Positions 509 to 62,357 of a DNA stretch of 64,000 bases are shown piece after piece. The stretch comes from a virus (lineage: Duplodnaviria; Caudoviricetes), in IMG/VR virus record IMGVR_UViG_3300021431_000005, positions 53,053-117,052 of that record. The stretch is one strand, 5' to 3'. The stretch's first letter is position 1, and each line of letters opens with the position of its first letter. The position numbers and the translations under genes were made by a program. Under the pieces are notes generated by a model. The model made no database searches. It worked only from the letters and a program-made list of their open reading frames with translations, and was not told where the DNA came from.

Positions 509-3500
509 TCATTTCTTGCCAACCAAACGATTCATGTTGGCTTCACGGATATACCTATCCATATATCCCCTGAACTCATCATAATTCTTCGCTCTGATGT
601 CGTTACCAGTAAATACAATAGTTGTAGAATTATCTATGCTTCCAGTAGTTCGCTCGGTAATTCTATCTATGGTTTTGTTATTCATGTAATTCGGAGTTCC
701 GTTAAAGGCACTTGGGTAATTCATAGAACCCGAGAATACACTTGGCGCACTATTCATAAACCTGTTCATCTGTTCTGTTTGTCCTGTACTCAATAATTTC
801 CACAGCGTTGAAATCTGCTTATTGTTGAGAACCATTTCAGGATTAGACGGTGTTCCATGAAGCATCGCAGGCCCCGTAAAGTCTACAATGCCGCCCTTAG
901 AAAATCCTCTGAATGCCTTTAAAACACCTTCAAACAGAGAACCGATTACACCAGATTCTCCACCTTCCCTCAATGCAGAGGTAAATGCTTTTAATGCAAG
1001 AGTTTGTTTCTCGGTTGCATTAGCAAATCTTACAGAGTATTCTTCGTAGAAATCAAGGTATCCCTCTTGTTCCTTCTTTAGCTTTTCATACTGGTCGATT
1101 TGCTTGTCATACTCTTTGATTACGCTCTGTGCATCTTCGATTTGAGGTTCGATAATATAGTGTAACTGATTCTGGAATCCTGCATAATTCAGTGCAAAGG
1201 AGTTAATAAGTCCAGTGTCTTTTGCCATAACAGCATCACGCCAGCCATAACCAAGTATAGCTGCGGCATTGATTTCGTCCTGTGCATTTTTATACGAGTC
1301 GATTGCTTCTTGCCATGCTTCCTTATACTTTTCGTATGCCTCGATCTTCTCGTCAATCAAAGCAGTTTCTGCATCCCGCTGGCTTTCAAGTTCAGCTATA
1401 CGATTATTATTGAGCGCATCATCATATTCTCGCTGTGCCTGTTCGAGTACCGATTTGTCGCTTTCTATTCTGAATCCGCCACGTTCTTTATCGTAAACTC
1501 TGACTTGGGTGTTCCTTGCTTTTGCGAGTGCCAGTTCTTTTTCTCGGAGTTCGTTAGCACGATCACGTTCTTCATTTTCAGATTTAAGAGCGTCGATCTC
1601 GGTGTTGTATCTATCTTCAATTAACTTCTTCTCGTCTTCGAGAGACTTGATTTCTCGGTCGATTGCGTTCGATACCGCACTTGCCGCACTTTCATAATTA
1701 GAGATGATTGTTTCAAGAGCTTCTTTTTGCTCATTGAGGGATTCAAGAATTTCATTCTGCTTATCTTTCTCTTCTTCAATAGCCTTGATTTTATCATCGT
1801 ACAACTTAATTTGATTTTTGAGTTTAATAATAACATCGTTATACCCCGTGATAGATTCGGGTAACTCTTGTAATCTTGCTATAAGATTGTCAATGGCTTT
1901 GATTTGAGATTTATCAGTAAGCGTAGTCCTAATACTTCGCAGAGTTTCAACCAAATTGTCAGGCGCATTATCTCTAAGTTCAACAAGTTTTCCACGGAGT
2001 TTATCTGTATCGTCTATAACAGATATAAGCTCAGGATGGGCAGTAACTAATCCCCACGCTTCGTCATTATATGTACCTTCGTCAATTGAGTCGATGATCT
2101 GTTGTATAGATTCTACATCGCTCTTAATTGCATCTGCCTCATCAGAATACGAAGAGTAATCAAAAGACCCAGACGCAGCCTCCCAAAACTTCTTCGTCAG
2201 TTCGTTTATTTTGCTCGCAGCATTTTTAGCCGCTTCTTCTGCACCTTCGCCGGTAAATTCAAAACCGACCCTAAGTTTGAGATAGTCTTCTCCACCGCTA
2301 AGTACCTTTTGTGCATAATCTCTGACTTCTTCGTCACTAAGGAATCTAGGTGTGCCGTCCTTATCGTATGTTCGAGAAGAAAAGTTTGCCGCACCATTTC
2401 CTGAATTAGAAACGATAGTGGTAACTTTACCACCATTTTTAAGCCAAGCGTTGCCGCCTTTTTCGTATTCTTTAAGGGTATCAAAATACTCCTTGACCTT
2501 TTCAGCAGGACTTCTCGTGTCAACATTAACAGGTTGGTTAAACAATATATCAAGCAGGGTTTTCCAACTTGCCGTATTTTCTTTCGCTTTAAGAATATCG
2601 TCGTTGAGTGCCTTGACTTTCTTAGTATAATCTGCATACTCAGCCGCATCACTCGGAGAACTGATATTATCAGGGGAAGTCACAGTATAGCTTTCTTTGA
2701 TTGTATCAAGCTGTTTCTCTTTATCTTCCGCCCATTTCTCATTCGCTTCAATTTCTTTCTGTATGGTTTCTTTGGTTGACTTAAAGAAATTGTTTCTTGC
2801 TGTTTCAATATCAGAAAGCGCAATGGTGTAGCCGTCTGCGGTTTTAGTAAACTTGTCGGCGAGACTAGCATCAATATCAATAAGTTCTTTAACGTCAGCC
2901 GCTGAAAGACTCTCGCCTTGTAATAGAGCAGAGCGAGCGGAATCAAGTCTCGAAAGGCTTTCATTGGTTTTACTGTATGTTTCGTCCTTGAACTTTTTGA
3001 GATTCTGATTATAACCATCAAGCAGACTGTTGATTCCCACGGTCTTTTCAGCAATCATCGACTCAATATCATTGAATGTGGATTCTACGGTGTCCTTTGT
3101 AGCCGTATCATTATCGTCAATGCTTTTAAGAGCTACGTCCTTTAACGTTTTGATTGTTTCAGACCATGTATAAATCTCGGCGCTGTTGGATGAGCCGACG
3201 ATGTTTTGAGCGTAATTGTAAGCGTTGTTTAGAATCTGCTGAATATCCTCGGGAATTTCACCCTCGTTGGATTCTCCACCGTCAATCAATTTCTGCATTT
3301 CCTCAAACGAAGAAATCAATTCTTTGTCGCGAGATATTTTTTCTTTGAGTTCTTTGCGCTTTTTATCAATCGCAGTTAACCACGCCATCTCGTTCTTGTT
3401 GCTCTTATCTATTGCGCCATCCAAGTCTTTCCAGAGTTTATCAAGAGTATCTGCCTGTTCTTCAAGAGTACCAAATATACCGATATAATTGTAATTTTTG

Positions 3501-4561
3501 CTACCTTCTATTCCTTGGCGATACCCAATGTTTTGGTACTTCTCAATAGTTTCTTTATATTTTTCCCAATTTCCCCAACCACTTGCCTTTATTTCTGTTA
3601 TACCTTTTGTTCCAAAAGAAAGATAAGTGCCGCCGTTGGACATTGTAAAATCTTTGCCAGCAAATTGACTCTCCTGTTTTAATTCATCTTTGGCATTATC
3701 ATACCCTGTTTGATTCTCGTTAATAAATTCCTTGGCTCTTTCATAACGAGCCTTCTGTATCAGGTTAAGATTCTCAACATATTTGCCGTTGACTAAATCA
3801 ACAGCCTTAGCTTCGTCACCCAGTTTTTCAACCAGCTTATCCTGAATAGAAGTCAGTTCTTCCTTCGACTTAGTTAAGTCTTCGCCGCTTAAAGCAAGTT
3901 TGTCATAAGTGTCAATCAGTTCTTCAATGGCTTCCTGTTCGTTTTTATACTCTTCGACATTTTCTTTGAGCTTTTCAATAGTCTCTTCTATATCAGCTTG
4001 TGCTTCTTTTTCTTTGTTGATAAACGTGGTTATTCCAGCGATTATACTAGAAATTGCCATAGAGACACCAAATGTTAATACTGCATTGAGTGCTACGTTC
4101 GCCGCTGTATAAGCCACAGTCTTAGCCGTTGCTCCGACAAGCTGTTTAGCGCAATCTCCAAATCCCATCTTTGCGCCGTTAAGCCCCTTAATAGTTCCGC
4201 CGAGTTTTCCATCAAGGTCTGAAAGAGCATTGGTGTATGCAGTTACCTGTTCGGGTGCGCCATGTTTTACTAGGTCATTATACTGCTTGATAGCTTTAAA
4301 ACGCCCTACGATGCCGTTAGACAAATCAATCTGGGACTTATAGAAACTCTCCATGCTTACATTGGCGGCGTCAGTGTTTTTAGCAAACTCAATAAGGTCT
4401 TTGTTTACGTGTTTTAGAGAGTCGAGATTGCCACCCCGATATATTGCAGTATCTATTTCTTTAAAATCATCAACAGAATATTGAGAAAGTTTATTATATT
4501 TTAACCCTTTTAAAAATTCTATCCTTTTTTTATTTGTTGTTTTGTCGTTTATATTTACTAT
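509..4561 (-). CDS. Tape measure protein, exon 2 (about 1350 aa)
   Basis: Long coiled-coil; C-terminal GFSKGGIVDFTGPAMLHGTPSNPEMVLN motif typical of TMP C-termini; no credible RBS/start of its own; joins exon 1 in frame after predicted splicing. Confidence 0.85.
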   Translation of the reverse strand: MVNINDKTTNKKRIEFLKGLKYNKLSQYSVDDFKEIDTAIYRGGNLDSLKHVNKDLIEFAKNTDAANVSMESFYKSQIDLSNGIVGRFKAIKQYNDLVKHGAPEQVTAYTNALSDLDGKLGGTIKGLNGAKMGFGDCAKQLVGATAKTVAYTAANVALNAVLTFGVSMAISSIIAGITTFINKEKEAQADIEETIEKLKENVEEYKNEQEAIEELIDTYDKLALSGEDLTKSKEELTSIQDKLVEKLGDEAKAVDLVNGKYVENLNLIQKARYERAKEFINENQTGYDNAKDELKQESQFAGKDFTMSNGGTYLSFGTKGITEIKASGWGNWEKYKETIEKYQNIGYRQGIEGSKNYNYIGIFGTLEEQADTLDKLWKDLDGAIDKSNKNEMAWLTAIDKKRKELKEKISRDKELISSFEEMQKLIDGGESNEGEIPEDIQQILNNAYNYAQNIVGSSNSAEIYTWSETIKTLKDVALKSIDDNDTATKDTVESTFNDIESMIAEKTVGINSLLDGYNQNLKKFKDETYSKTNESLSRLDSARSALLQGESLSAADVKELIDIDASLADKFTKTADGYTIALSDIETARNNFFKSTKETIQKEIEANEKWAEDKEKQLDTIKESYTVTSPDNISSPSDAAEYADYTKKVKALNDDILKAKENTASWKTLLDILFNQPVNVDTRSPAEKVKEYFDTLKEYEKGGNAWLKNGGKVTTIVSNSGNGAANFSSRTYDKDGTPRFLSDEEVRDYAQKVLSGGEDYLKLRVGFEFTGEGAEEAAKNAASKINELTKKFWEAASGSFDYSSYSDEADAIKSDVESIQQIIDSIDEGTYNDEAWGLVTAHPELISVIDDTDKLRGKLVELRDNAPDNLVETLRSIRTTLTDKSQIKAIDNLIARLQELPESITGYNDVIIKLKNQIKLYDDKIKAIEEEKDKQNEILESLNEQKEALETIISNYESAASAVSNAIDREIKSLEDEKKLIEDRYNTEIDALKSENEERDRANELREKELALAKARNTQVRVYDKERGGFRIESDKSVLEQAQREYDDALNNNRIAELESQRDAETALIDEKIEAYEKYKEAWQEAIDSYKNAQDEINAAAILGYGWRDAVMAKDTGLINSFALNYAGFQNQLHYIIEPQIEDAQSVIKEYDKQIDQYEKLKKEQEGYLDFYEEYSVRFANATEKQTLALKAFTSALREGGESGVIGSLFEGVLKAFRGFSKGGIVDFTGPAMLHGTPSNPEMVLNNKQISTLWKLLSTGQTEQMNRFMNSAPSVFSGSMNYPSAFNGTPNYMNNKTIDRITERTTGSIDNSTTIVFTGNDIRAKNYDEFRGYMDRYIREANMNRLVGKK

Positions 4562-4589
4562 CGGACTTATAAATATATGTGGGAATATA

Positions 4590-4618
4590 TTGACAAAAAT
4601 ATAATTGCATGATATAAT
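4590..4618 (+). promoter_or_regulatory. Consensus sigma-A/sigma70 promoter driving the intron cargo gene
   Basis: TTGACA-17 nt-TATAAT with extended -10 TG; AAAGGAG SD at 4623-4629. Confidence 0.9.
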
Positions 4619-4629
4619 AATCAAAGGAG

Positions 4630-5097
4630 ATGATGAGAATGTCAGAGAAATATGTATTTATATGCCCAAAGTGTGGTCAAGTGGAGGGAATTACTTATCC
4701 TCATGGAACCATCGTTAATTGTTGTTTCTGTGAAACTCAATTATTAGAAACCAGTCTTACATTACATGAATCGGCTGAAGCAATAAGAAATGGTACGATT
4801 GAAATTATTGACCGCAAACTGTTCGAGCAGTATGTAAAAAACAATCCCTTGTATGACCAAAATGAGGCAGAACTTTCAAAGCTTAAAAGAGAAACTAATA
4901 AGATAGCGAACGAGATGCGGTACGCCGCCGAACGTGCTGTCAAAGAAGCAAACAAACCGCATTGTCCAGTATGCAACTCAACCAATGTTGAGCGGATCGG
5001 CGCAGTCCGCAAAGGTGTTTCAATTGCCGTTTTCGGATTGTTCAGCGGTGATATTGGAAAGACGATGGTTTGCAATAATTGCGGATATAAGTTCTAA
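4630..5097 (+). CDS. Zn-ribbon protein with short hydrophobic segment (moron-like), antisense inside the TMP intron
   Basis: CPKC, CCFC, CPVC and CNNC pairs; GVSIAVFGLFS hydrophobic stretch; own promoter and SD; no homing endonuclease motifs recognised. Confidence 0.85.
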   Translation: MMRMSEKYVFICPKCGQVEGITYPHGTIVNCCFCETQLLETSLTLHESAEAIRNGTIEIIDRKLFEQYVKNNPLYDQNEAELSKLKRETNKIANEMRYAAERAVKEANKPHCPVCNSTNVERIGAVRKGVSIAVFGLFSGDIGKTMVCNNCGYKF

Positions 5098-5451
5098 AAA
5101 CATTGTATTGATTTCGCCCTTTTCCCACTATGGCGGCGTGACCATATATGATTTTTCAGTATTAAATACTGTTGTCCAGAGTACCCCATCACGATTTTCT
5201 ACATATCGTTGTAGTTGACCGTGCTACCATTATACTCGTTGAACCTTCCTTTTCCAAGGCTTGGCTGCGGATTCGATAGCATTTCAGCTATCCTCCCCGA
5301 GCGAGAATCATAAAACTCGCTGTGCTATGCACCATGTTCGGTAGTTTTTCCAAAGCTCTCTTGTTGATATTACGAATACAATATCAACTCGTTCCGTGTT
5401 ACCACCAGAGCTTACTCGGGCATATTCGCTGAGGGCAAACATTTTAGCCCT

Positions 5452-8400
5452 ACCCGAGCCTGTTTTCATTTGCAGTCCAGTTAAACCGAACGCAGTCGCT
5501 ATTCCTGCGCCTGCCGCCGCACCATTCTTGGCGATTCCGTCTAATAATTCAAGAAGTGTCTTTGCGCCGTCAATGAGAAATTTGACGGCTTCGCTGTTTA
5601 CGGTATCAACTGATAACTGCTGCCATGTGGACTTCAACTGATTAAGTTTTCCGTCTATAGAATCAAGAGAAGATTCTAACTCCTTAGAAGCCGAACCTTC
5701 TGCAAGTCCCTCGTTCAAATCTTCAACAACTTTTTCTGCTGTCTCGAAGTTTCCAAGGATCGCCTGAACTGTATTAAGACCAACTTTACCACCAAGCATT
5801 TCGGCAATATCTGCTTGCTGCGAATCAGTTAACGTGTCATACACCCCAGAGATTTCTTTGAGTATCTGGTATGTAGATTTAAAAGTATTTTCGTCTTGCA
5901 TAATGTCAATTCTTGTAATACTTTTTATCTTATCACGCAGTTCAGCAGTAGTAATTGTCATTTCTTCTGCATCTTCGCCAAGCTGATCCGTTGTGCCTCG
6001 GATTCTTGCAGAAATAGATTTAAGTGCCGTGCCAACAGTTTCCGTATTCTGTACGATAGTATTGGCAGAAGTAATAAGACCTATGGATTCGTTGAGATCG
6101 TTGCCTGCCGCATTCAAGGATGCCGCCGACCTCTGTAACGCATCGCCTACTCCCTTGCTTGTGATTGCGAAGTTGTTGCCAGTATAATTGAACTTATCAA
6201 CAATTTCTTCTGCGGTTACGCCGATTTTCTCATAAGCCTGCATTGTCGAAATAATGCTTTGGCTCGCTGTCTGAATATCTAAATCGTCGCCGACGGTTTT
6301 ATAAACCGTTGCAAGTTTACCAAGATTTTCAGCTTCATTCAACGATTTACCTAATCGACTGAACTCAGAGGTTGCATCAACATAATCCGTGAGTGTAGCA
6401 CCTATATCCACAGAACGACCGCCTGCTGTATCTAAATACTGTTTGAGCTGTCTCTCGTTTGCATCTGTAACCTTTCTAAGATTCGTCATTGCAGTATCAA
6501 CTTCATGAACCTGAGTAACCATATCTTTGAGCAATCTCACAGTATAGTTCAAACTCTTGGTAACAAACGCCCAACCGCCGTACTTCTTATACAATTCTCC
6601 AAGTACGTTACCGAAAGTCTTGCCGGACACGCCAGCTTCTTTAACGGTTCTGTCAAGTGCCGACATATCCGCTCTTAATTTATTCAGGTCTTTATCACTT
6701 TGAATTGCGCCCATGCTTATCCTATTAGTTAGTTCTTCATAGGCTTTTGCGAAATAAGGGTCTTTAAGCGCCTTAGAGTTATCGTCACCCCATTTTCCGA
6801 GTCGCTTTACTGTTTCTTCGTATTTTTTCTGAAAAGCAATTGCTGCGTTATCTGCCTGCTCCTGCTCTTTCATCGCTTTATTACTTTCTTTTTGAGCAGT
6901 TGTAAAATTATTTACGGCTTCGGTAACTTCGTCAAGTCTGTTAATATATTCTATTAAAGGCTGAATTGAATTACCAAAGTATTGTTCTTTAAGAAAATCA
7001 GCGTCTTTTCCCTGAGCAGATGCCGCATTCACGATATATTCATTCTTTCGGCTCTCAAAATTGTTTGATAACGCTTCGAGCTGATTATTGTCAAGATTAC
7101 CGATATTTGCCAGAATCTTTTGCGTTTCCCCACCGCTATCTCTGAGTTGTTTTAATAGCTTTTTAAGTTTTTGAACCTTTTTAGAGAAGTCGTCTATCTC
7201 GATATTACTACCATCGAAATTAAACATTGTTAGTCTTGCATCGTCATAATCCTCGTATGCTTTGTGAATCTCGGATTCGTATACTTCAGGTTCTTCGGCT
7301 AAATATGGATTCTTTGAATAATTGCTTATTACCCCAAGTCTATATTCGAGAACTTTGAGTTTTTCTGTGTTACCGCCTGCAGCTTCAACCATTTTAATTG
7401 TACTACGCAATGTCTCTAACTTCTCATTTGCTTTCTCAGATTCAGAAATGATCTCTCTGAGTGAAATAGCTAAGTCAGAAACGGTTTGAATATCATGAGA
7501 TTCTTTTTGTAAATAATCAGTAAATCCCTGATCTTGACTATACAAATCTTCTTTGATTTGATTAACTGTATTACCAGATAAATTGGGTCGTTGAACCTTT
7601 TTGAGCATACTTTCGGCATTTGTATAAAAAGTAAGTATTTCATTAAACTTATGTTCAAAATCATCTATTGGTTGAGATGTGGCATTAGGATGATTATCAA
7701 AATACCGTTTTATGTATTCAAATGAATCAAATACTTTTTTTACCGAGTCAAAATAAGTTGTAATATCTTGCCCAAGAGTCGCAGCTCTTTTAACAATTGC
7801 AGGATTGCCATTGGTAGTTATGGGAAGAGTTTGGGAATACGACAAGAGAGTATTTATGTCACTAATGTTTTTTTTCTGCCAATTCCCGAAGGATCTATTG
7901 TGTTCTTCCAACTCCTCCATTAATTCTTTGCGTTTTTCTTCAGATAAGTTTGCCTTGTTTATCTTCTTCACAACGTCTTCAATGTTTGAATAGATAACAC
8001 GCATCTGTTCATATAATTCATTAAAGCCAGCTGTTGTGTGTGGCAATTGAGAATTGGTTTCTTTTAAAGATTTATCGAGAAATTCAAATAAATCATAATT
8101 CTCTTTTACTGTTGAAGATATTTCAAACGCTCTCTGTCTATCAGAGGCGGCGTTTTCAATTCCGCCAACGGTATTATCCTGAGTTTTAGAAGCGCCGCTG
8201 TTAACTATAGTTGGTTGATTTTTTTGTAACAGCTGCATAAGCTGTGCGAGCTGCGCTTGTGTCAGAAGACCACCGCTTGAATTTACTAATGCACTAAAAT
8301 TAGTAACCTCAGTTTTAAACGTCTTGCCAAGTTGCGCTATTATATTATCCAACTTCTTGCCAACGACATCAGCGTAATTGTCTTTGTTGTTAGCATTAGC

Positions 8401-10236
8401 AATCGACTTGTTGATTGAATCCGCCAAGGTTGCAATCTGTGTTTTGTAGAACACCTCGTTCACAGACTGTTCGTTGTCAACAGATTCAACTTGTATAGGC
8501 GAGTCAAACTTAGAAATCAGATTGTTGATAGCTTCTATTATTGTGTTAAGAAGATTGTTTACTTCGGGGGTCGTAGTATCATTCTGCTCTGTGTTTTCTT
8601 TTGTCTCAATAGCTTCGCTGATAAAGTCGTTTGTCCATTCGAGCCTGTTTTGTATATCCACGATACGCTCTGTTAACGATTCTTCATAAATGGGTTCTAC
8701 ACTTTCATCATTGTGCATTAACTGAGACTTTAAAAGACTATCTTCTGCAAAATCAACATTGATAGTTTGATTAAGTTTTTCGTAAATCGAATTAAGTTTT
8801 GTGCCAATAGAAGCAAGATTATTTATAATGTCAGGATCCACTGGTGTCTCAGGGGGAGGAGGTGAAGTTGTTGTGTCAGGATTTGATTCTTTTGGTTTAT
8901 TGTTTTGCTTAATTTCGATATGTTTTGACAAAACATCACTCTCGACGCTCTCTATCTTTTTGAGTCCGTCAGCAATCATCTTTATAGATTTTGCGATTGT
9001 ATCAAGTTTATTTGGAACTACAAAATCAATGTTGATTTCATGAGTCTTATTGTCTATTTCATTGAGTATATCAGACAAAACTTTTAGTCCATTATCTTGT
9101 ATATCAACTTTAATCTTAACGTCCTTGGATTCTACATTTGACAACTGTCCAATTGTTTGATCCAATTTGCCGACTTCTTTATTTACGTTCCCAACATTGC
9201 TTTCCAATGCTCTGATTGTATTATTGGTTGCATGAATATATTCTTGTAAAACAGAAACAGTTTGGCTCATTGGCGAAAGCGTAGTTTCGTTTACCGAATC
9301 AAAAGTATCCTTAAATATTTTTACAACCTGTATCATTCGTTTTATAACATCTTCAAGATTTTGAAAAGGAGAAGCCATTCCTTTTCCCGCATTTTCAATC
9401 GCATCAGTTGTTTTAGTTAGTTGTTTTATTTCTTTTGGTACAGGGAGTATATCGCTTGCTTTTATTGTGTCTTGGGTTAGTTTAAAATTATTATTCCATG
9501 CCCTTCCAAAGCTTGATGCTGAAACCCCTATTTCAGTATACAGGGCTTTAAAGTCATCTTTATATTGTTTAGTTTCATCCGAAAAAGATTCGAGAGTTTT
9601 AATACTACCCTTAATATTTGAATTGAAGTCTAAACTGGGATCAATTTTTAATAGTGTTTGAAGTTTATTTAATACACCATAGGCTTTATTTGCAGTATCA
9701 GACAGCATTCCAATTTCATCAACCATCGCTTCGTATGCTTCCTTTGTTGTCTTGCTGTCTTTTCTGCCGGATTGCATGGCGCGTTGTAGATTACCGAAAC
9801 TTTCTACCGCCTCTGGATCGCCAAGAGTTTCGTACATATTGGTTATTTCACTATTTAAATTAAGAAACTCGCTTTTTAAATTATCAAATGTTTTTTGAAG
9901 CGTTGCCTGATCCGTCATAATATCAGGTCTAATTTTCGAGAGAGTCCTAAGTCCTTCGAGAACTTCTTTGCGAAGTCCCTCGGAATCAAACTTGACTTTA
10001 AAAGTCTTGTTTATTATTTCGCTTCTGCCACCCATATTGAGTATGCGTCCAATAGCTTCGTTTACTTTGTTTAATTTTGAAGCTTCAACTGGACTATCGT
10101 TTTCTTTGATTATATAATTTGCCGTAATATTTACGCCTTTGGACTCAAGCTTTTGTATCTTTTTTTCTAAATCATCCAGTTCTCCGTTGTTGACTTTTGT
10201 ATCAAACACTATATCAAAATTGCTATTTTCATCCAT
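5452..10236 (-). CDS. Tape measure protein, exon 1 (about 1595 aa)
   Basis: TP901-type TMP core (VDTAMTNLRKVT, VDKFNYTGNNFAITS, GTALKSISARIRG); GAGGTG SD before ATG 10236. Confidence 0.9.
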
Positions 10237-10246
10237 TTGTCTCACC

Positions 10247-12634: not shown

Positions 12635-13401
12635 CTCTCCTTTTCTTTATTGTTTTGTTTTGCTATTGAACCATACCATTCAAGAGAAGAGCTGTCAATG
12701 TCTTTTGAACTAACAACTCCGCCGTAAATGGCATGATTTATATTCTTACAAGCATCACGCTTTAAGACTCTATAAAAGCTATCATACATTTGACTTATAT
12801 GACAGTCTTTAATATTATCGTAACCTATTGCAGTATTCTCGGTATTGCATAAAGCGGATGCAATGTTGGCAATATTTTGTTTGAGTGGTTTCTTTGCATT
12901 AAACTCTTGTTTCTTTTTCATTCTTTTGATAAGGTATTTTTTTACTGATTCAGAACCCGGTTTAATTTCGTTTACTATTTCGCTGTCGATATAATGAATA
13001 AACCGCACGAAGTCAACTATCTGATAATAGATGTTTTTGTCGATGATACACTTTCCGTCGAATAAAACCACTTCGTCGTTTTGAGGATTTATTGTTACCT
13101 CAAACTTCCGAAAGTCGATAGAGGGAAAAAGTATCTCCGTCATTTTTGGCACCATTTCCGGACTCTTCATGTTTCTAATAAACAAGTCGTAGTCTGTCAC
13201 TGTTTCATAATCAATACCCTGTTCCCATAAATTAACCATGTCGTCATATGGACGCATAACAACGCTGTTTATCAGAGCCATATAATTAAACTCGCCAAAG
13301 GCTGCGATCTCACCTATCGTTGGGTTGTGTATTCTTAGCTTGTCATTGATTATATAGTCCTCGCCAAACACCAAATATTTGAGTTCGTCTAGCTGCCGCA
13401 A
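12631..13401 (-). CDS. Conserved virion-module hypothetical protein
   Basis: ORF overlapping neighbours in the structural operon. Confidence 0.65.
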   Translation of the reverse strand: MRQLDELKYLVFGEDYIINDKLRIHNPTIGEIAAFGEFNYMALINSVVMRPYDDMVNLWEQGIDYETVTDYDLFIRNMKSPEMVPKMTEILFPSIDFRKFEVTINPQNDEVVLFDGKCIIDKNIYYQIVDFVRFIHYIDSEIVNEIKPGSESVKKYLIKRMKKKQEFNAKKPLKQNIANIASALCNTENTAIGYDNIKDCHISQMYDSFYRVLKRDACKNINHAIYGGVVSSKDIDSSSLEWYGSIAKQNNKEKER

Positions 13402-13886
13402 GCGTCTACATCCTCCGCTTCAAATCTAAGAATTCTACACCTATGATTGCTACCACAACCATCTTCTTCGTTCGATATAAGTTCAATCGGTTTCTTTCCG
13501 AGTCCAGTATAACCGTTAAAAAGTTGTTCTACTTCTTCTGCAAGTAGATCAATTCTGGTTGCACCCTCATCAGTTTTCATTTCGCCCTGATGCGAGATAA
13601 CATAAAATTCAACAACCAACCTTTGAAATAGCGTACTTCCCGAATAGACCTTTGGAACATATATCCTATAACAGATATAATTAAGCTGTTCGTCCGGAGC
13701 CTCGGGGACCCTGATAAAGGGGTAAAGATTTGTGTACATCATATCCTCTGCGCTCTTTAACTCATCGTTGTTGACGAGTTCAAATATTCTTTCGTCATTG
13801 ATTAGCATAGATGCGATTTGTCTTTTAAACTTTATAATCGTCTTGCTACTATTAGAACGTTTGGATTTATAATAACTCGTAGCCAT
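13389..13886 (-). CDS. Putative tail terminator/completion protein
   Basis: TRIDLLAEEVEQLFNG motif; GGAGG-like SD before MATSYY; position. Confidence 0.55.
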   Translation of the reverse strand: MATSYYKSKRSNSSKTIIKFKRQIASMLINDERIFELVNNDELKSAEDMMYTNLYPFIRVPEAPDEQLNYICYRIYVPKVYSGSTLFQRLVVEFYVISHQGEMKTDEGATRIDLLAEEVEQLFNGYTGLGKKPIELISNEEDGCGSNHRCRILRFEAEDVDACGS

Positions 13887-15678: not shown

Positions 15679-16227
15679 TCATTCGTCAACGGTCAGATCA
15701 AAAGCCTCACACAGATACTTGATAGTCTTCATGGAGTCAATAGTGCCGTTGTTTATAAGGTCAGTAGCTTTAATGCCAATATGTTCTCTGACACCCTTTG
15801 GAAGCTTAGAGATTGCGAGTTTCATTTCCTCGAAAGGCAGAGTGAGAATATTTTCATAATCCTCAAATGAAGGAACACCCTCGTAATACTTTTCTACGCC
15901 GAGATATTTAAGAATCTCAGGGTCTTCAATACCAATCCAATTCTCGGTAAAAAATCTCGGCTGAGAATTTCGCATCGACATAAGCTCTTTAAGTTCAATG
16001 TCCTCAACGTCTCCCGGTTCACTCCATATGATCTTGTAACCAAGCTGTCTGTTGCTAATGTAAATCAGCCTGCCCATAGTAATATTCTTGCATTCAACAA
16101 GCATATCATCAGGAAGCTTCTGACGCTTCTTCGGCGCAGAAACTCTTGTGGGCTTTACTTCCTCAGCCACCGCTTCTGTAATATCTGTCTGTGCTTTAAC
16201 ATTCTTGTTAGAATTTCTTGTTGCCAT
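15679..16227 (-). CDS. Conserved hypothetical protein after major capsid
   Basis: AAAGGAG SD; 182 aa ORF. Confidence 0.65.
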   Translation of the reverse strand: MATRNSNKNVKAQTDITEAVAEEVKPTRVSAPKKRQKLPDDMLVECKNITMGRLIYISNRQLGYKIIWSEPGDVEDIELKELMSMRNSQPRFFTENWIGIEDPEILKYLGVEKYYEGVPSFEDYENILTLPFEEMKLAISKLPKGVREHIGIKATDLINNGTIDSMKTIKYLCEAFDLTVDE

Positions 16228-16247
16228 AATTATTTCTCCTTTTATTC

Positions 16248-16284
16248 AAAAAATGGGGGACGCACTAAAACATCCCCCCAATAA
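16248..16284 (-). terminator. Intrinsic terminator after major capsid gene
   Basis: TGGGGGA...TCCCCCA stem with T-run on minus strand. Confidence 0.7.
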
Positions 16285-16294
16285 AACATATTTT

Positions 16295-17305
16295 TTATGC
16301 AATGGAATAAATAGCCATTCTGCCAGTCTGGGCGATACCAACACCATATCTGTCAATGTAGGTGTACTCCTGAGACAGATCAGCATTGTCAAGAGGATTG
16401 CCAAGATATACAAAGGGTTCGCCCTCGTTGATAACCTTAATGGGTCTGTCGCCGCCTGCAATTATGTAAACCTTCTTGTCATCAAATGCAAAGTCGGTTG
16501 TACCGGGCTTGTAAACCTGTCTGATAAATGCAGTATTGGTGCCATAGAACTTACCGTAATAGCCGAGGTTGTAAAGGTCGCTCTTTGCCTCTTCGCCAAT
16601 TTCCTTAATGTCGAGCTTCGCAAGAGCAGACTTTGTGCCGAAGATAGTTGCAGGCTTGCCTGTCTCTGCTTCAACACGGTTCACAAGAGTGCGAAGTTCC
16701 TCAGCATCGTAAGTGCCAGCGGTGGGGTTATAGATAGAACCAGCTTCAACAACCTTACTCAGAGCATTATAGCATTCGCCAAGAATTGCCTGCTTGAACG
16801 ACTCTGCTACCTTATTAATAAAGTAGTTCAGATCAACCTTGCCCGAAAGAACTCTATCAAGTTCATCATAAATCTTGATAACCTTGGGCGAAGTCTTAAT
16901 ACGAATGTGTTCACCGTTAATAAACCTCTGTCTGCGAATACCCTGTGTACCGCGAGCAACTTCGGAAACAAAGAACAGAGAATCGTCTTCGATATAGAAA
17001 TCATTTTCATCGCCAAGAGCAGTAGACTTAAATTCAACAAGCTGCATAAAGAACTCGTCGTTCTGGAATCCCTCGATTACTGTCTTCTGAAGTATAGTCT
17101 CCACAAGACTAAACATACCAGTACACTTGCCATCACGAATAGCCTTAATATCAATCTTGGTAGAATTGTTATTTGCTTCAACGAGTGCCTTTCTAAGCAC
17201 CTCCATCGAATCCTTTACGGAATAATTAGCAGCGGGAACGCCCTTATATGCGTCAACCGCAAGCTGTACAATATCGTCAAAAGTATATTCAATAGCCATT
17301 TTCAT
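16295..17305 (-). CDS. Major capsid protein
   Basis: 336 aa; ALGDENDF...GTQGIRRQR and FGTKSAL motifs of SPbeta/c-st-like capsids; follows scaffold and decoration genes; terminator after. Confidence 0.8.
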   Translation of the reverse strand: MKMAIEYTFDDIVQLAVDAYKGVPAANYSVKDSMEVLRKALVEANNNSTKIDIKAIRDGKCTGMFSLVETILQKTVIEGFQNDEFFMQLVEFKSTALGDENDFYIEDDSLFFVSEVARGTQGIRRQRFINGEHIRIKTSPKVIKIYDELDRVLSGKVDLNYFINKVAESFKQAILGECYNALSKVVEAGSIYNPTAGTYDAEELRTLVNRVEAETGKPATIFGTKSALAKLDIKEIGEEAKSDLYNLGYYGKFYGTNTAFIRQVYKPGTTDFAFDDKKVYIIAGGDRPIKVINEGEPFVYLGNPLDNADLSQEYTYIDRYGVGIAQTGRMAIYSIA

Positions 17306-17329
17306 TTCTCCTTTCTTTTATTTTTATAA

Positions 17330-23977: not shown

Positions 23978-24061
23978 TGGGGAGGGTTGGACTCGAACCA
24001 ACAACGTTTCTAATGTCACGGTTTTACAGACCGCTTGCTTCACCAATTTGCATACCGCCCC
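23978..24061 (-). tRNA. tRNA-Tyr(GTA)
   Basis: Cloverleaf; anticodon arm GCGGT-ctGTAaa-ACCGT; long variable arm; GTTCGAG T-loop. Confidence 0.88.
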
Positions 24062-24182
24062 AAAAATAAAGAGCCAGCACAACGCTGACTCAGCTATATA
24101 GCTTATTAAAAACCTTTCGAGTTTGCCACCTAATAGTGAGATAGTTACTGTCGAAAGATTGCTGTCATGAGTAAATTAGTAT

Positions 24183-24961
24183 TTAATCCTGCTCAATCAC
24201 AGGGAGAATGTTTTGTTCCTTTAGTTTTTCATATAGAAATAATCTTCCCTTTTGTGTCCAATAAGTATGCACCCAAGAACGCTCTCCATTTTGACCCGTC
24301 TTAGTTTTTGTGTATCCTTTATCGGCATACTTCTGATACAATACCCAAGTATCACCGACTTTGTACTGTATGCCATTATCATGCAACCACTTGTTTAACC
24401 AGTTCGCAGATTCACCATAGTCTTTTGCAATCTGAGTTACCGAAAGAACATCTTTTGTTTGAAGCACAAGATCGTAGTATGTAACCTTGGGTTCATACTC
24501 TGCAATCTGTTGTGCCTGAATTGCATTTTCGGCTTCAAGCTCCTTGCGTCTTTGACGTTCTTCTTTTAGTGCAGTCAAAGCCTCGATTGCAAGGTCTGGA
24601 TTATTTATTATTTCATCAATTGCAAATAGTCCATGCCTGCGAATGGACGGAAGAACCTCACTTGTTACCCAATGCTTGAATTTTTTGGCATCGGGCAATT
24701 TGCTTGAAAGGATAAGACTATACAGACCGCTTTCGTTAATAAGCCAACCGCCACGCTGTCCGAGATTAAGATTGCAACTCAATAGCGTTTTGCTATTGAG
24801 TTTATCTTCTATATCAACATGATCTCCTATTGCTTCATTAGGATTACTATACCCAAGAATAGCAGCTACATCTTTTCCAACAAACCACGGTTCGCTGTCA
24901 ACACTTATCGTTCTTACACTACCAAATTCTTCATTCTCAAATACTTTTACAATTTCATTCA
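24183..24961 (-). CDS. BRO-N / KilA-C (ANT) antirepressor
   Basis: EPWFVGKDVA, INESGLYSLILSS, FKHWVTSEVLPSIRR; C-terminal TQIAKDYG, WTQKGRLF. Confidence 0.92.
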
Positions 24962-25054
24962 TAATCATTTCTCCTTTAATAATATATATATCAAAGGTGG
25001 ATGAGAAAGTTCCCCGTAATTCCATTACTGACACACAGTCAGCCTATGATTATT

Positions 25055-25765
25055 TTACATTTTATCTGCCCACGCCGATAGTTCGCCCCTGTAATTCTTA
25101 GATAAGTGACACACCCTTGCCCACTCTTTATCCTTAAAGTGGTCGATACATTTAACAAGTCCAGAATCCTCGGGCTTGATTCCTTGAATTTGTAAGGTTG
25201 AACCAATAACACACACATAACAATCATCATGACAGCGAGTGAGAACTGCCTTTAATTGCTCTTTGGTCATGCACTGCGCTTCGTCAATGATTATAAACTT
25301 CTTAGAAAAATCGCTACCAAGAATATACACATCGGTCATTGTTGTAAAAATTCCCGTTCCCATTTTCTGATTTATGTAAGTATCATCATTGATAACCGCC
25401 ACCGGGTTCTCTCCTAAATTGATTAAGGTGTGTACTAACGGAGCCATGTAGGGTGCTTCCTTGTTTTGCTTTTCGCCCGGAAGGAAGCCTAGTCTGCCTT
25501 CGGAACTCGGTGTTCTTATATAATAAGCTTCATTACATATACCATACTTTACATACATCAATGCAACCGCAACCGCAAGAGTTGTTTTACCTGAACCGGC
25601 CACTGCGTCAGCCACAACTAACCTCACGTTTCTATCCCAAAGGCTGTCTCGATAGTATAACTGTTCGGGATCAGAACAGTCGAGACCGTAAAAGGGATGG
25701 TCTTTAAGTGTTAAAGGGGGATTGCCGTAAAGACTCTGTGCATTTTTCTTTGTATTCTTTGCCAT
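25055..25765 (-). CDS. phoH: PhoH family ATPase
   Basis: AGSGKT, LGFLPG, IIDEAQ, LTR motifs. Confidence 0.9.
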   Translation of the reverse strand: MAKNTKKNAQSLYGNPPLTLKDHPFYGLDCSDPEQLYYRDSLWDRNVRLVVADAVAGSGKTTLAVAVALMYVKYGICNEAYYIRTPSSEGRLGFLPGEKQNKEAPYMAPLVHTLINLGENPVAVINDDTYINQKMGTGIFTTMTDVYILGSDFSKKFIIIDEAQCMTKEQLKAVLTRCHDDCYVCVIGSTLQIQGIKPEDSGLVKCIDHFKDKEWARVCHLSKNYRGELSAWADKM

Positions 25766-25780
25766 ATTATAACTCCAAAT

Positions 25781-26404
25781 TTATAGTATTTCATCAAGGT
25801 CTTCAAGTATCGTATTGACACATTTGTATTTGAGCTGTTCTTCGGTGGTAAGGAACCAATCCGTCTTTGACTTTCTCGAAAGAATGTTCTTGGGTATCTC
25901 TGACCTTTCAAGAATATAGGCGTATGTTTCATCTATCATTTTTTTGTAAGACTTTGTTCCTTCTTTTACTTCTTCATAGCTGCCTACCACACCGCCAGAA
26001 CCACTGTGAATAAGCATCTGTGATCTTGGCATACAATATCTTTCATGTCCAGCAAGAAGCAAAAGTCCTGCCGCACTATATGCCATATTCATATTTACGG
26101 TGATAACAGGAGTTTTTGACCTTTCAATTATCGCAATAGTTGCAAGCATAGAAACAAGACTTCCACCCTCGCTATTTATAAGAATTACAATCTTCTTTCT
26201 GCCTGCAATCGGAATGCCTTTGTCCTGTCGATTATATTCAAGTATCTGTGTTCCGACCTCATTCAAAAACATCTCGTTAATTTCATAATCCACAACAATT
26301 ATTCTATTGCTAAGATTGTTATAATAGTTTACAAGATCGGGATCGGGCAGCTTGTAATCTGCGGTTTCCTTTGATATGGGGATTGTGATAGTAAAATCTT
26401 CCAT
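25781..26404 (-). CDS. ClpP-like protease subunit
   Basis: INSEGG, AYSAAGLLLLAG (Ser), MLIH (His), DWFL motifs. Confidence 0.88.
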   Translation of the reverse strand: MEDFTITIPISKETADYKLPDPDLVNYYNNLSNRIIVVDYEINEMFLNEVGTQILEYNRQDKGIPIAGRKKIVILINSEGGSLVSMLATIAIIERSKTPVITVNMNMAYSAAGLLLLAGHERYCMPRSQMLIHSGSGGVVGSYEEVKEGTKSYKKMIDETYAYILERSEIPKNILSRKSKTDWFLTTEEQLKYKCVNTILEDLDEIL

Positions 26405-26465
26405 TCTTTACATTTCTCCTTGTGTGGTTTAAAAAATTATTAAGCCCTGCTATCAGAACTTGTGA

Positions 26466-26539
26466 TACGCTCGACAGGAATCGAACCTGTGACCTACACT
26501 TTATCAGAGTGTCGCTCTAGCCGACTGAGCTACAAGCGC
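26466..26539 (-). tRNA. tRNA-Ile(GAT)
   Basis: Cloverleaf GCGCTTG...; anticodon ctGATaa; GGTTCGATTCC. Confidence 0.92.
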
Positions 26540-26547
26540 ATATATAA

Positions 26548-26618
26548 TGGCGAGTTTGGGAGTTGAACCCAAAGCCACGGAATATGAATCCGTAATGTTA
26601 CCTTTACACCAACTCGCA
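26548..26618 (-). tRNA. tRNA with CAT anticodon (Met or Ile2), atypical
   Basis: ACGGA-ttCATat-TCCGT arm; GGTTCAACTCC T-arm; U1.C72 mismatch. Confidence 0.75.
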
Positions 26619-26715
26619 ATAATCGGTTTACCCCTTTCAGACACATCTTACTCAGGGCTATTATCCGTCCGAGAACGATAACTACAATAGTTGCAACCGA
26701 AAACTACTTGACGCA

Positions 26716-26788
26716 TGATCGAGAGGGGATTTGAACCCACTGTTACCAACGTGAAAGGCTGGTGTCTTTACCACTTGACTACTCGACC
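26716..26788 (-). tRNA. tRNA-Glu(TTC)
   Basis: CCAGC-ctTTCac-GTTGG arm; GGTTCAAATCC. Confidence 0.88.
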
Positions 26789-28520: not shown

Positions 28521-28693
28521 GTTATAACCTCTCTGCTTCTAATCTCCTCGATAGCCTGCTCTATTGCTTTGCCCTCTTCACACCAATAAGTCTTGCTACC
28601 CTTGCCTTTTTTGCGTTTTGAACAAACCTTGATTGAAATATTTGGAAATCGTCTCCTGAGTTCAAAACTTTCGTCCTGTGTAATTCTATACAC
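28517..28693 (-). CDS. Small basic hypothetical protein (58 aa)
   Basis: Not in track. AAAGGAG SD, GTG start, (M)YRITQDESFELRRRFPN...; stop overlaps next ATG. Confidence 0.65.
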   Translation of the reverse strand: MYRITQDESFELRRRFPNISIKVCSKRKKGKGSKTYWCEEGKAIEQAIEEIRSREVIT

Positions 28694-28845
28694 GTTTCAT
28701 TTCTCCTTTATTTCTCTTTGTGGAAGAAAGGCTCGTTTATCTTCCTCCCCTAATGGGCAAGTTAGCAATTTTCTAAAACCCCCACCATTACTGGGTTTGC
28801 GTTAACCTTAATAATGATGGGGGATACTTTTTTGCCTATTTTTTA

Positions 28846-29834
28846 CTACTTTTTTATTTCTATATAATTAACACCATATAAATGAATGATGCCGCTATCG
28901 TCCTGTCTAAGATACCCGACAGGCTCTTTGCTCCTTAACACCATGTCAAAGAACGCTCCGTTTCTTGAACTAAATAATATATGGAACAGAGACATACTCA
29001 AATCCTTGTTCTCATCCTTTTCAAGTTCTTTGAGTAAGAAGAACATCGTGCTGTTACTTATTTTCATATCAGTAATCGCATTAGAACAGCGCTCTCGGAT
29101 TTCGTTCATTGCTTTAAACTTTTCTTCATTCGTCGAGTTAGAGGCAGAGTAAACCATGTTAACATCGGCTTTCATTTCTCTGACCATTTCAAGAATGCGA
29201 ATAATCTGATCTCGCTTCTGCGCTCCCTTTTTGTATAATGAGCTATCTATTATATCAATGAATGCAACCTGATTTTTTCTGCCGTCCCACCTATATCGTG
29301 GTATATGGAATCTGCGAATAACAGACTGAACGTAGTCCATCGTTGTATTATGCTGTTTGTAATTCTTTCGCTTTGAATTATAATACCCCTTAGACCTTGC
29401 AAGATGTCCAAAGAAGTTTGGTTTTATGTAACGTTGTTTGTTGTCCAACCGCAGGTATTTGTCTTTGAGGATCCCGATTTCTTTTGCGCTATCTAACTGG
29501 TATTCTTTCTTTGCTTTATCAATCTCTACATTAGATAATATTGCCAGTTTCACAATATCATCGTACAACTCTTTGTTGTCCTCAAACGTTTCACCGCTGT
29601 TGATTTTATCCCAGAATAATGTATTAAGCTCTTGTGACAGGTTAACAATCTCTCCAATCTTATTAACACTTGTCCTTATATCAAGGTCGCATTTGTCGGC
29701 ATTATTGTAATAACGTTTTCTTTTGCTTGCTGATACTCTTGAAGTCGGTATAGCAAAGTTATTATAATTTTTCTCAGCAGCATCAATAAGTAGTTTGTTG
29801 TTTGTAAGTAGCATTGTATCGCTATCAAAGTCGC
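28846..29834 (-). CDS. YonO-like single-subunit RNA polymerase, exon 2
   Basis: Starts with (C)DFDSD catalytic motif; IGEIVNLSQ and EIDKAKK motifs. Confidence 0.85.
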
Positions 29835-30144
29835 CATTGAACCCTCGGTTTCCCGATATTTCAGTAGGGGATTAGACTATTTCTTTATCTCAAAGAGATA
29901 CTCGGCACTTCCACCGCAGAATTACACTGCAAGTGTATAGATTTCATCGACCAAATTGGTCGGTATATCTTAGTCGTTACATCTTCAAAGCCGTTACCGG
30001 CAATGCTTGACACGACATTATCATGTGGAACTAAATTATAATTTAGTTCTATTTAGATTCCGTCGTTAGCAGCTTTCGCTACACCCTGTATGTACAGGTT
30101 CACCGAGTTTGCTACCACACGTCGCCGCATGGTGGGGCGCATTC
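29835..30144 (-). mobile_element. Group I intron (ORF-less, 310 nt) in RNA polymerase gene
   Basis: P1 GGGU/GCCC; R GUAACGACUA and S GAAAUAGUCU (canonical P7); terminal G; splicing gives KLNG-C-DFDSD. Confidence 0.88.
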
Positions 30145-31933
30145 ACCCGTTCAACTTTTCAAGCAAATTCTCTCCAATACTATTTACACAAACTATCTCT
30201 TCCGAAAGATGAAAATATCTATCAATCCTCTCATCCGCCACATTATTGGCAAGCAGAATATTCCCTGCACAGATATGCGGACTTCTCGAACCTAATAATC
30301 TTGTTCCATAATCAAATCTAATATTATGTATATTCCCGACACCGAGTTCAGACTCGCCAGTAAATCTCCCAATTGAATGGAGTAACATCTCGTAAGGGTT
30401 GCCGAACAATGTAGAATAGTTGCCGTTGACAAGCACATGACCCGATTGAAGGTTTTTCTTAAACGATATAAGCAAGTCTCTAAGAAAATCGTGATACAGC
30501 TTTGTCTCAACGAAGCGATCATTAAGACCGAGCATCTGATAAATAACATCGTTCTTGTTGTTTATTTCCTCAAATGTTATTTCCTGATTTTCGGGATATT
30601 TGATATGGTTTCTAACTACCGCAGGATTATAGCGCAGGCTTGTCATGTATTCAAACGACTGAGCAAGTAACCGTTCTACTTCTTCGTATGACAACTGTAA
30701 TGTATTCAATAATTGATAGTGAGTCTGCACAAGTCGCCCCTCGAAATAATGAGTTGGCTTCTCATGCTTGACAATTCCAAATGACGTTTCCAAATTATCA
30801 AGCCACTGATCCAATGTTCCAAATTTAAGATATTTAATACTGCTGGGGGTTGTTATAAGCTTTATCTCGTCAATACTTTTCGCCCATGTGTAGCCATTAA
30901 GCTGCGATACATCGGTAATGCCATTGTCGGCAAAAAACTCTTGAATGTGTGTAGAGAACGCCGCAGTTTTAAAGAAGCGGTTTCGTAATAATAGCATTCC
31001 GTACTTCTGATATTTGCCAAACAGAGAATAGTCCATGAGGGTTTGACCGTCCCAAATACTGTTGTCTATTTCTACTTCTTCATTGTTGGTAACGAGTGTT
31101 TCACCGTCAAAAGAAACTGCGGCCGCTTTTGATTTAAATACGCTGTGATAGTCGTCAATGACCAGTATATTCTCGGGCTGTATTTCAACCGTATCAATTA
31201 TACTACTAAGAGTAAGCGATATATATGCTTCGTATGCGGCAAGGTCTATCTCGGCATTGTTCTTTATTCTGAGTCCACAGCATTCCCACTTGTGCATCCT
31301 GCTGTACAACTTCTCGTCAATAAACAAGCATTTACCGACACGACTGCTACCACTACTGCGTTTAAAACGTATGTATTTTATTCCGTCACACAAGAATCCG
31401 TTAGTGTAAAGTTCTTGTCTCAAATCCGCAACTGTATTCAAGACCTCTATGTTGTCCTTGGCTTTGTATTTATTGTCCTCATAATAAAAGAACCGCCCGA
31501 GTTGTTCGTCATCAACAGGGGCGGTTACAGTCGTATTTACTTTTATGGCTATCAGTTCATTGTCTTTTAAACAAACGCAATCATCAAGTTCTATATCATT
31601 TATATCATAACCGAACTTGACGTATGTATCGGCGGTGACTCGATTGTATTCTTTGTTGCTGTAATTAAACGTAACGTTTATGACTCGCTGTGAATATTCC
31701 TTGCCTGAGTCCATAAACGAAAAGCGTTTATTGTGGTAGACCTTTTGATAAACCTCACGAAGTTTAAAAAGGTCAAGACAGTAGTCGAGATCGCCCGAGA
31801 ACTTTTTCAGACTGATAGTTCCGTCACGGCGGCGGATATTATATCCAATAGGGTTGGGTTTGTTATAATGGTTCGCTATGAATATATCTTTGGCATCGAG
31901 GTTAAGGATTTTAATTGACTTTGGTGTACTCAT
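30145..31933 (-). CDS. YonO-like single-subunit (RdRP-fold, double-psi) RNA polymerase, exon 1
   Basis: RSSGSSRVGKCLFI, WDGQ, LLRNRFFK, RSPH motifs; spliced product about 925 aa; SD before ATG 31933. Confidence 0.85.
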
Positions 31934-31949
31934 TCGCATCTCTCCTTTA

Positions 31950-33940: not shown

Positions 33941-33969
33941 ATTATACCATACTTTTCACTATTTGTCAA
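33941..33969 (-). promoter_or_regulatory. Consensus sigma-A promoter for recombinase/rep operon
   Basis: TTGACA-17 nt-TATAAT with extended TG on minus strand. Confidence 0.88.
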
Positions 33970-36815: not shown

Positions 36816-36904
36816 GCTGACATAGCCGAATTGGTTAAAGGCGCGGACTCAAAGTCCGTTTCCGAAGTACAAGGAATCTGTTGGTTCGAGTCCAACTGTC
36901 AGCA
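36816..36904 (+). tRNA. tRNA-Leu(CAA)
   Basis: GCTGACA/TGTCAGC acceptor; GCGGA-ctCAAag-TCCGT arm; long variable arm; GGTTCGAGTCC. Confidence 0.9.
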
Positions 36905-62285: not shown

Positions 62286-62357
62286 TGCCATGTAGCCAAG
62301 TGGTAAGGCAAGAGACTTTGACTCTCTCATTCGCTGGTTCGAGTCCAGTCATGGCAA
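62286..62357 (+). tRNA. tRNA-Gln(TTG)
   Basis: TGCCATG/CATGGCA acceptor; AGAGA-ctTTGac-TCTCT arm; GGTTCGAGTCC. Confidence 0.93.

Follow-up and report, generated by a model that had tools for sequence, protein, structure and literature searches.

Group I introns interrupt the tape-measure (TMP) genes of Bacillus cereus-group prophages, where TMP-IVS1, IVS2 and IVS3 are described, and the account given there of TMP-IVS3b and of a tail-tube intron reports them without a complete homing-endonuclease gene (Tourasse and Kolsto 2008, PMC2504315). In the IStrons, a group I intron is combined with an IS200/IS605 element in its 3' end (PMC4227781, PMC3984707). TMP genes are also linked to phage exclusion: HK97 gp15 is a moron that adjoins the TMP gene and excludes phages (PMC3594210), and Ltp of TP-J34 targets the TMP (Bebeacua 2013, as cited in PMC3952083). 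The original prediction for the locus described here had appealed to precedents of the latter kind, and these are real.

Group I introns are usually thought to be empty or to carry a homing nuclease. At the present locus, an independently promoted gene on the opposite strand is reliably sheltered in an intron of an essential structural gene. We analysed a 64-kb window that comprises bases 53053-117052 of an IMG/VR virus record; the record is 117,052 bp long and has direct terminal repeats. The region of the small gene gave no blastn match in 50,697 phage records. Two giant minus-strand ORFs, 10245..5308 (1645 aa) and 4624..509 (1371 aa), flank the small plus-strand gene, called the cargo gene below, and the larger ORF has a PF10145 (PhageMin_Tail) match. 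The features of the locus are collected in Table 1.

Table 1. Predicted features of the cargo locus, in window coordinates
Feature	Coordinates	Strand	Remarks
Group I intron, 890 nt	4562..5451	-	5' splice site after U5452; last base G4562; splits the TMP gene
Ribozyme core, P1 to P9	5098..5451	-	∼99% identical in L002 and L003
Intron 3' tail, 26% G+C	4562..4638	-	Complement of cargo promoter and RBS; 3' splice site AAGUCCG/AUAG (splice at the stroke)
TMP exon 1, 1598 codons	5452..10245	-	PF10145 at residues 1280-1486
TMP exon 2, 1350 codons and stop	509..4561	-	No canonical start codon with SD near its beginning
Sigma-A-type promoter	4590..4618	+	-35 TTGACA 4590-4595; 17-nt spacer; TG 4610-4611; -10 TATAAT 4613-4618
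Shine-Dalgarno (SD) AAAGGAG	4623..4629	+	GGAG 9 nt before ATG 4639; sequence reading
Cargo CDS, 152 aa, double zinc-ribbon protein	4639..5097	+	ORF open from ATG 4630 (155 aa, P0001)
N-terminal Cys4 zinc ribbon (ICPKC ... CxxC)	4663..4731	+	Invariant I11, C12, C15, C31, C34; model strands 7-11, 39-44
C-terminal Cys4 zinc ribbon, basic and hydrophobic inner loop	4963..5082	+	From alignment; widespread C-terminal module
Weak imperfect hairpin, -9.6 kcal/mol, then U5	∼5102..5159	+	After the stop; unconvincing as terminator
Hypervariable patch	4324..4942		50-70% identity to L002 and L003; flanks 96-100%

The cargo gene had been predicted to be the sole plus-strand gene in 34 kb. This is essentially right; the greedy ORF map of 509-33881, however, contains two further plus ORFs, one of 393 aa (16148-17329) and one of 70 aa (28593-28805). 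The former is probably spurious, since it coincides in part with a 336-aa minus ORF that starts with ATG, and no protein family matched it. Elsewhere in the window, a gap of ∼330 nt separates the minus ORFs 28846-29814 and 30143-31963. Six tRNA genes (Rfam RF00005) are present, four clustered at 23978-26788 (-) and the others at 36816-36904 (+) and 62286-62357 (+). Three tyrosine recombinases are encoded in the genome.

Predicted group I intron in the TMP gene

The minus strand bears AAUCCGCAGCCAAG ... GGUUCAACGA, a Q-P6-R motif. This pattern is present in more than 113 viral contigs, and in those other viral contigs that were tested it falls inside RF00028 matches. P1 of the window pairs as CUCGGGU/GCCCGAG with the U.G pair at the 5' splice site; U5452 closes a codon and 4561 opens one, so that the two exons join in frame. 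A homologous but diverged intron is present in L204, where P1 reads UGUGGGU/GCCCACA, also with U.G, and the exons again join in frame. Helix covariation was compared for two independent sequence types only, those of the window and of L204, and we observed compensated changes in P3 (CUACCG/UGGUAG against UCACCG/UGGUGA) and P7 (GAGUA/UACUC against GAGCA/UGCUC), as well as in P2, P2.1, P6, P8 and P9. P10 has four of its five pairs in the window and all five in L002, L003 and L204 (AAUGU/ACAUU in L204); exon 2 of L002 and L003 begins AUAUU and can pair with the guide sequence common to these introns over the 5 bp of P10. The uninterrupted TMP of L213 is collinear with the window across the junction (alignment score 376) and, in the best aligned segment, 59% identical to the last 250 residues of exon 1. 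Both in the window and in L204, it is the stretch from P9 to the 3' splice site that holds the cargo gene, in antisense orientation. The description of the gene as intron cargo was thus borne out by the compensatory helices in L204, the in-frame joining and the collinear, continuous L213 homologue.

The Rfam model RF00028 gave no match on the region at E ≤ 1, or on 401 nt even at E ≤ 10, and none on the whole window or on ten related loci. Since P1, covariation, P10 and in-frame joining were all found, we take this miss as a limit of the model's sensitivity, and we conclude from these comparisons that a predicted group I intron interrupts the TMP gene. Because Rfam misses the intron, annotation pipelines will call such TMP genes broken.

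Two other arrangements were rejected. Two TMP halves that are separate genes with a moron between them do not agree with the continuous homologues or with an exon 2 that has no start codon and SD. A 7-bp pairing of GUGGGAA (after P9) with UUCCCAC (near the promoter), which would close the cargo loop, has an estimated probability of about 1 in 4 of occurring by chance, and L204 has no compensating pair.

Further insertions were seen in TMP genes of related loci. L002 has a second insertion of ∼1.6 kb (3776-5395) in TMP exon 1, between window residues 1394 and 1395, with same-strand ORFs of 319 and 59 aa; it gave no match in Rfam and is probably another intron with an endonuclease-type ORF. In L126, a 358-nt gap between pieces of the giant gene (3056-3414) holds GTTCAACGACTA; the ORF that comes after it has 412 aa and matches DUF723 faintly. 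This gap is a candidate for a further intron in the C-terminal TMP half.

The cargo gene, its promoter and its product

ATG 4639 is the likely start of the cargo gene, since it lies 9 nt after the GGAG of AAAGGAG and the resulting 152 aa agree in length with an identical protein in the databases and with the Atlas record. Relative to L002 and L003, the overall dN/dS is 0.17-0.19, with 0.14-0.17 in the 105 codons of the divergent N-terminal part and 0.05-0.09 in the C-terminal part. The frame stays open in homologues of 81, 74, 71, 59 and 44% identity, and the ORF is intact in all relatives. We found 21 homologues with E ≤ 0.001 and 211 cargo-family relatives in viral contigs, and a tblastn search of phage records with the protein gave one partial match only. 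Judged by its sequence, the cargo is a genuine gene under purifying selection.

Upstream of the gene, the original prediction had placed a fully consensus sigma-A promoter with an extended -10, and this is what we found: 12 of 12 positions match and the TG is in place. Only one more site in the 64 kb of the window agrees perfectly with the sigma-A consensus. This other perfect TTGACA-17-TGnTATAAT site, 33969..33941 (-), heads a tyrosine-recombinase gene (33156-33881 (-), PF00589), so that the cargo gene and the recombinase share the strongest host-type promoters of the window. Sites with at most one mismatch number 4, against 1.16 expected. L002 and L003 retain the TTGACA-17-TGnTATAAT layout despite a different spacer sequence, and matches of at least 10/12 occur in 17 of 56 relatives compared to 8% of controls.

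It had also been noticed that no obvious terminator separates the cargo gene from the ribozyme core. This observation stands. Neither a consensus scan nor a hairpin and T-tract scan detected one, the plus strand downstream of the stop folds no better than shuffled sequences, and between stop and core no convincing terminator is present in the window, L002 or L003. Antisense read-through into the complement of the core is possible in the window. Among relatives, however, read-through is not a conserved trait, since 21 of 54 distinct relatives (39%), compared with 17 of 154 controls, have a strong hairpin and T-tract within 200 nt after the stop; L204, with its homologous intron core, is one of them. 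As regards the features of a moron, the gene has its own promoter and, in the window, no terminator of its own, and its G+C content (0.40 vs 0.39 for the window) is not deviant.

The four Cys pairs seen in the protein at the outset are C12/C15, C31/C34, C112/C115 and C148/C151 (155-aa numbering), and all eight Cys are invariant in 19 homologues. The C-terminal unit also reads as described, with CPVC, 32 residues that include VSIAVFGLFSG, and then CNNC. The suggested structural modelling was fruitful in part. The AF2 model (pLDDT 81.5) has an N-terminal ribbon at 7-44, helices at 45-68 and 77-107 (the latter long), and then the C-terminal ribbon, whose inner loop (125-142) is badly defined (pLDDT 37-53); the structure search, on the other hand, yielded generic zinc ribbons only, with nothing at E ≤ 0.001 in Foldseek against the PDB and one probable family member only against BFVD. 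The protein is thus predicted to consist of two Cys4 zinc ribbons with a helical linker between them. The hydrophobic inner loop could be a membrane-dipping or a partner-binding element.

Profile searches of Pfam, PHROGs, PADLOC and NCBIfam with the cargo protein gave zinc-ribbon matches below the cut-offs and none above. Among nuclease families of Pfam and NCBIfam, none matched at or above cut-off; a weak PHROG match to an HNH family (E = 0.033) was observed. PADLOC gave no defence-system match, its one match being Cas12a at E = 0.069, which falls on a zinc ribbon. Neither a signal peptide nor a lipobox was seen, the N-terminus going straight into the zinc knuckle, and no transmembrane helix is predicted, since the best 19-residue hydropathy is only 1.38; the hydrophobic stretch has 11 residues. 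In the alignment of 19 homologues and in wider relatives we found no conserved Asp, Glu or His for a nuclease site, and the family alignments show no conserved HNH or His-Cys motif. The invariant or near-invariant residues are Cys, Pro, Ser, Gly, Lys, Ile, Phe and His111, and many relatives have Lys in place of His111.

The C-terminal module comprises 3775 representative clusters and defines thousands of clusters of small phage and Bacillota proteins without assigned function. It stands at the extreme C-terminus in all of the best 150 matches (proteins of 63-298 aa). Longer fused forms of the module were not found, and the N-terminal parts of the longest family members are further zinc ribbons or unassigned sequence. 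PF12760 (Zn_ribbon_IS1595, cut-off 25.4) is passed by P0040 (37.1 bits), with P0078 (24.7) and L155 (19.5) below it and no match above cut-off for the window protein; the nearest named Atlas cluster (score 0.93) carries an IS1595-type zinc-ribbon label. An Atlas feature of LITAF-like type (score 0.86) is a lead only: PF10601 (LITAF-like zinc ribbon) gave no match, and the 11-residue hydrophobic stretch compares with ∼20 residues in LITAF-like proteins. Nucleic-acid binding through the ribbons is likewise only a lead, because zinc ribbons also mediate protein contacts.

Linkage of the cargo gene to the intron site

In the protein-family search, a giant minus-strand ORF (at least 600 aa) starts directly beside the cargo gene in 63 of the 80 loci kept, and most of the exceptions are overlaps, extra genes or broken giant ORFs. 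In 65 of 77 loci, an N-terminal half of PF10145 type lies 0.3-8.4 kb off and has its end at the homologous residue, and the sequence past these ends contains group I motifs of several flavours. A search with the TMP N-terminal half gave 80 loci, in 46 of which the TMP is continuous (running more than 1000 aa beyond the junction), in 25 split at the junction and in 9 off the contig end. The cargo gene is at the junction in 20 of the 25 split TMP genes, always antisense, and in none of the 46 continuous ones. No member of the cargo family was found at 113 other viral group I intron loci, and a search with the window's exon 1 tail alone found no related loci. Since copies at the junction are confined to split TMP genes in this way, we conclude that the cargo gene is, by its distribution, dispensable for TMP function and the signature cargo of this intron site. 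Its presence in 80% of split TMPs of very divergent phages is above expectation for an ordinary swappable moron and hints at a function tied to the intron.

In L251, L258, L259, L272 and L281, the TMP stops at the same junction and no ribbon gene is detectable; L251 has antisense ORFs of 531 and 214 aa in its place, and L272 a 178-aa antisense ORF. In intron-less phages with uninterrupted TMPs of ∼2100-2900 aa, a related ribbon protein of 174 aa is encoded on the strand of the TMP gene, two genes upstream of it (L260:7030-7554, L242:7331-7855, L254:6768-7292). The middle part of this protein resembles, by eye only, the C-terminal domain of ribosomal protein L7/L12.

The slot of relatives also holds accessory islands, with up to 8.4 kb between the gene and the end of the N-terminal TMP half. 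In larger versions of the slot (L125:7001-12750; L126:7001-14570; L133, L138, L143, L144 and L157 at 12880-13467), units made up of a ribbon gene, a DUF2513 gene and a small gene on the opposite strand are repeated, and a PemK toxin gene, HTH genes and second ribbon paralogues are found there as well. In L121-L124 (e.g. L121:4392-9417), a block of ribbon gene, 59-aa gene and DUF2513 gene adjoins a Mu-like transposase in a bacterial histidine-biosynthesis operon, and only an 81-aa remnant is present where the giant gene would be.

The cargo gene had further been said to be linked to a particular TMP allele. Physical linkage to a hypervariable TMP segment was indeed observed, as a single patch runs from the exon 2 head (∼80 codons) through the tail of the intron, with the promoter, into the cargo gene, of which it takes up the N-terminal two thirds. 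By contrast, identity to L002 and L003 is ∼99-100% in the ribozyme core and at the end of exon 1, compared to ∼85% for the exons. This pattern of sequence identity would fit module exchange or recent intron transfer, and it would also fit matched specificities.

Possible roles and comparison with known systems

The best explanation of the data as a whole, which we hold tentatively at a little short of an even chance, is that the cargo gene encodes an accessory regulator or conflict factor, expressed from its own promoter, for which the intron is a safe harbour. The intron family is found at a single conserved TMP site (after ...K-T/N-x-G) in large gut Bacillota phages, with the cargo gene always antisense between P9 and the 3' splice site and its promoter backing onto that splice site. 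The intron would be a safe harbour for the gene because splicing removes the cargo from the tape-measure message. With its own consensus promoter, the gene could be transcribed by the host RNA polymerase independently of the late tail operon, and we infer that the protein is made in early infection or in the lysogen. The product would be a soluble, non-enzymatic protein of 152 aa, with two Cys4 zinc ribbons and a helical linker, which most likely binds nucleic acid or a partner protein through the ribbons and which may benefit the intron-bearing phage as an accessory regulator or conflict factor. The cargo would be neither needed for TMP function nor a homing nuclease, and any antisense effect on splicing would be a by-product and not the selected function. 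A protein that serves the phage would make the intron a place where accessory genes can be parked safely in the long late operon; one that serves the intron would be a new kind of intron-encoded factor.

An alternative which we consider unlikely is the role originally put forward, that of a superinfection-exclusion or defence protein that acts in the lysogen or early in infection and blocks the DNA entry of related phages through their TMP; the linkage would then reflect matched specificity. Like gp15 and Ltp (PMC3594210; for Ltp, as cited in PMC3952083), the cargo gene is a small, independently promoted gene by the TMP in the tail operon, and these precedents act on DNA entry or on the TMP. 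The strength of the promoter and the orientation against the late operon agree with such a role, and so do the extent of the hypervariable patch over the N-terminal part of the protein and the first ∼80 exon 2 codons, the PemK, HTH and DUF2513 genes in the same slot of relatives, and the related 174-aa ribbon protein upstream of the TMP in intron-less phages. Lysogeny is possible with three tyrosine recombinases. However, PADLOC gave no match, and Cys4 zinc proteins are normally cytoplasmic. The known TMP-directed exclusion proteins are at the membrane or surface (gp15, SieA and Ltp being membrane or lipoproteins), whereas the cargo protein has no signal peptide, lipobox or predicted transmembrane span. 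Co-variation with exon 2 is expected from adjacency alone, and in L002 and L003 the differences are greater in the cargo gene than at the head of exon 2. The gp15 moron lies between genes and the cargo gene lies inside an intron.

Quite unlikely, in our estimate, is a factor that serves the intron itself, either as a splicing cofactor for a ribozyme with its 3' splice site far from the core or as a sequence-specific DNA-binding protein that would help the intron to be inherited in preference to intron-less alleles when infections are mixed. The confinement to the intron site (20/25 split against 0/46 continuous TMPs at the junction), the likeness of the ribbons to those of transposases, and the higher identity of core and exon 1 end (∼99%) than of the exons (∼85%), which resembles recent transfer with co-conversion, are in favour of this reading. 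The slot by the 3' splice site is also the seat of homing-endonuclease or IStron transposase genes (PMC3984707). Against it, the protein has no conserved Asp, Glu or His for a nuclease site and no nuclease-family Pfam match at cut-off, 5 of 25 split TMP genes have no detectable copy, and no family member occurs at any of the 113 other loci with viral group I introns. The known group I maturases are LAGLIDADG-derived. We give only a slim chance to a selfish, nuclease-free counterpart of a homing endonuclease, in which the protein, made early from its own promoter, would recognise the insertion site in the intron-less TMP allele of a co-infecting relative, or in the transcript of that allele, and by binding there bias recombination or replication towards inheritance of the intron-bearing allele, or exclude the intron-less competitor; this would explain the restriction to the intron site, the recent-transfer look of the core and exon 1 end, and the joint hypervariable patch.

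The chance is slimmer still that the antisense RNA or the promoter itself is selected, with read-through or convergent transcription throttling TMP splicing and expression, as had also been proposed for lysogeny. A transcript of the cargo gene is, by its position, complementary to the intron, its promoter matches the consensus perfectly, and no convincing terminator lies between stop 5097 and the core in the window, L002 or L003. The protein is, on the other hand, under purifying selection and belongs to a large family, and a strong terminator is found in 21 of 54 distinct relatives, L204 included, against 17 of 154 controls. Late pre-mRNA would also be missing in a lysogen, so that, given a silent late operon, a suppressor of splicing has little to act on in lysogeny. 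A functionless, decayed zinc-containing homing endonuclease (HNH or His-Cys box) is scarcely credible, as the weak PHROG HNH match (E = 0.033) stands against a dN/dS of ∼0.17, an ORF intact in all relatives, thousands of family clusters, no conserved HNH or His-Cys motif, and a promoter and RBS of the gene's own.

The cargo gene and its intron can finally be set beside the known systems. The C-terminal ribbon of the protein is like that of IS1595/IS1-type transposases (PF12760) in the CPxC ... CxxC arrangement with an inserted hairpin. In those transposases the ribbon is known from the N-terminus, whereas here it is the C-terminal module of small stand-alone proteins.

As described for the B. 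cereus TMP introns, a group I intron splits the large TMP gene of a Bacillota phage and is patchy among related phages, and different introns fit their P1 and P10 pairings to one site (PMC2504315). Unlike those introns, the present one carries a complete, selected, self-promoted gene on the opposite strand, and RF00028 misses the intron family. A text search of that survey (PMC2504315) and of the review of bacterial group I introns PMC3984707 found no mention of an opposite-strand or antisense intron gene.

The IStrons resemble the present intron in their layout, with a 5' core that is separated from the 3' splice site by foreign genes, in their Clostridia-type hosts, and in that splicing renders the insertion harmless. 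They differ in their cargo, which is a transposase or TnpB that gives mobility. IStron cargo is probably on the same strand as the intron. Here the cargo is a small zinc-ribbon protein without a catalytic domain, encoded antisense to the intron and transcribed from its own promoter.
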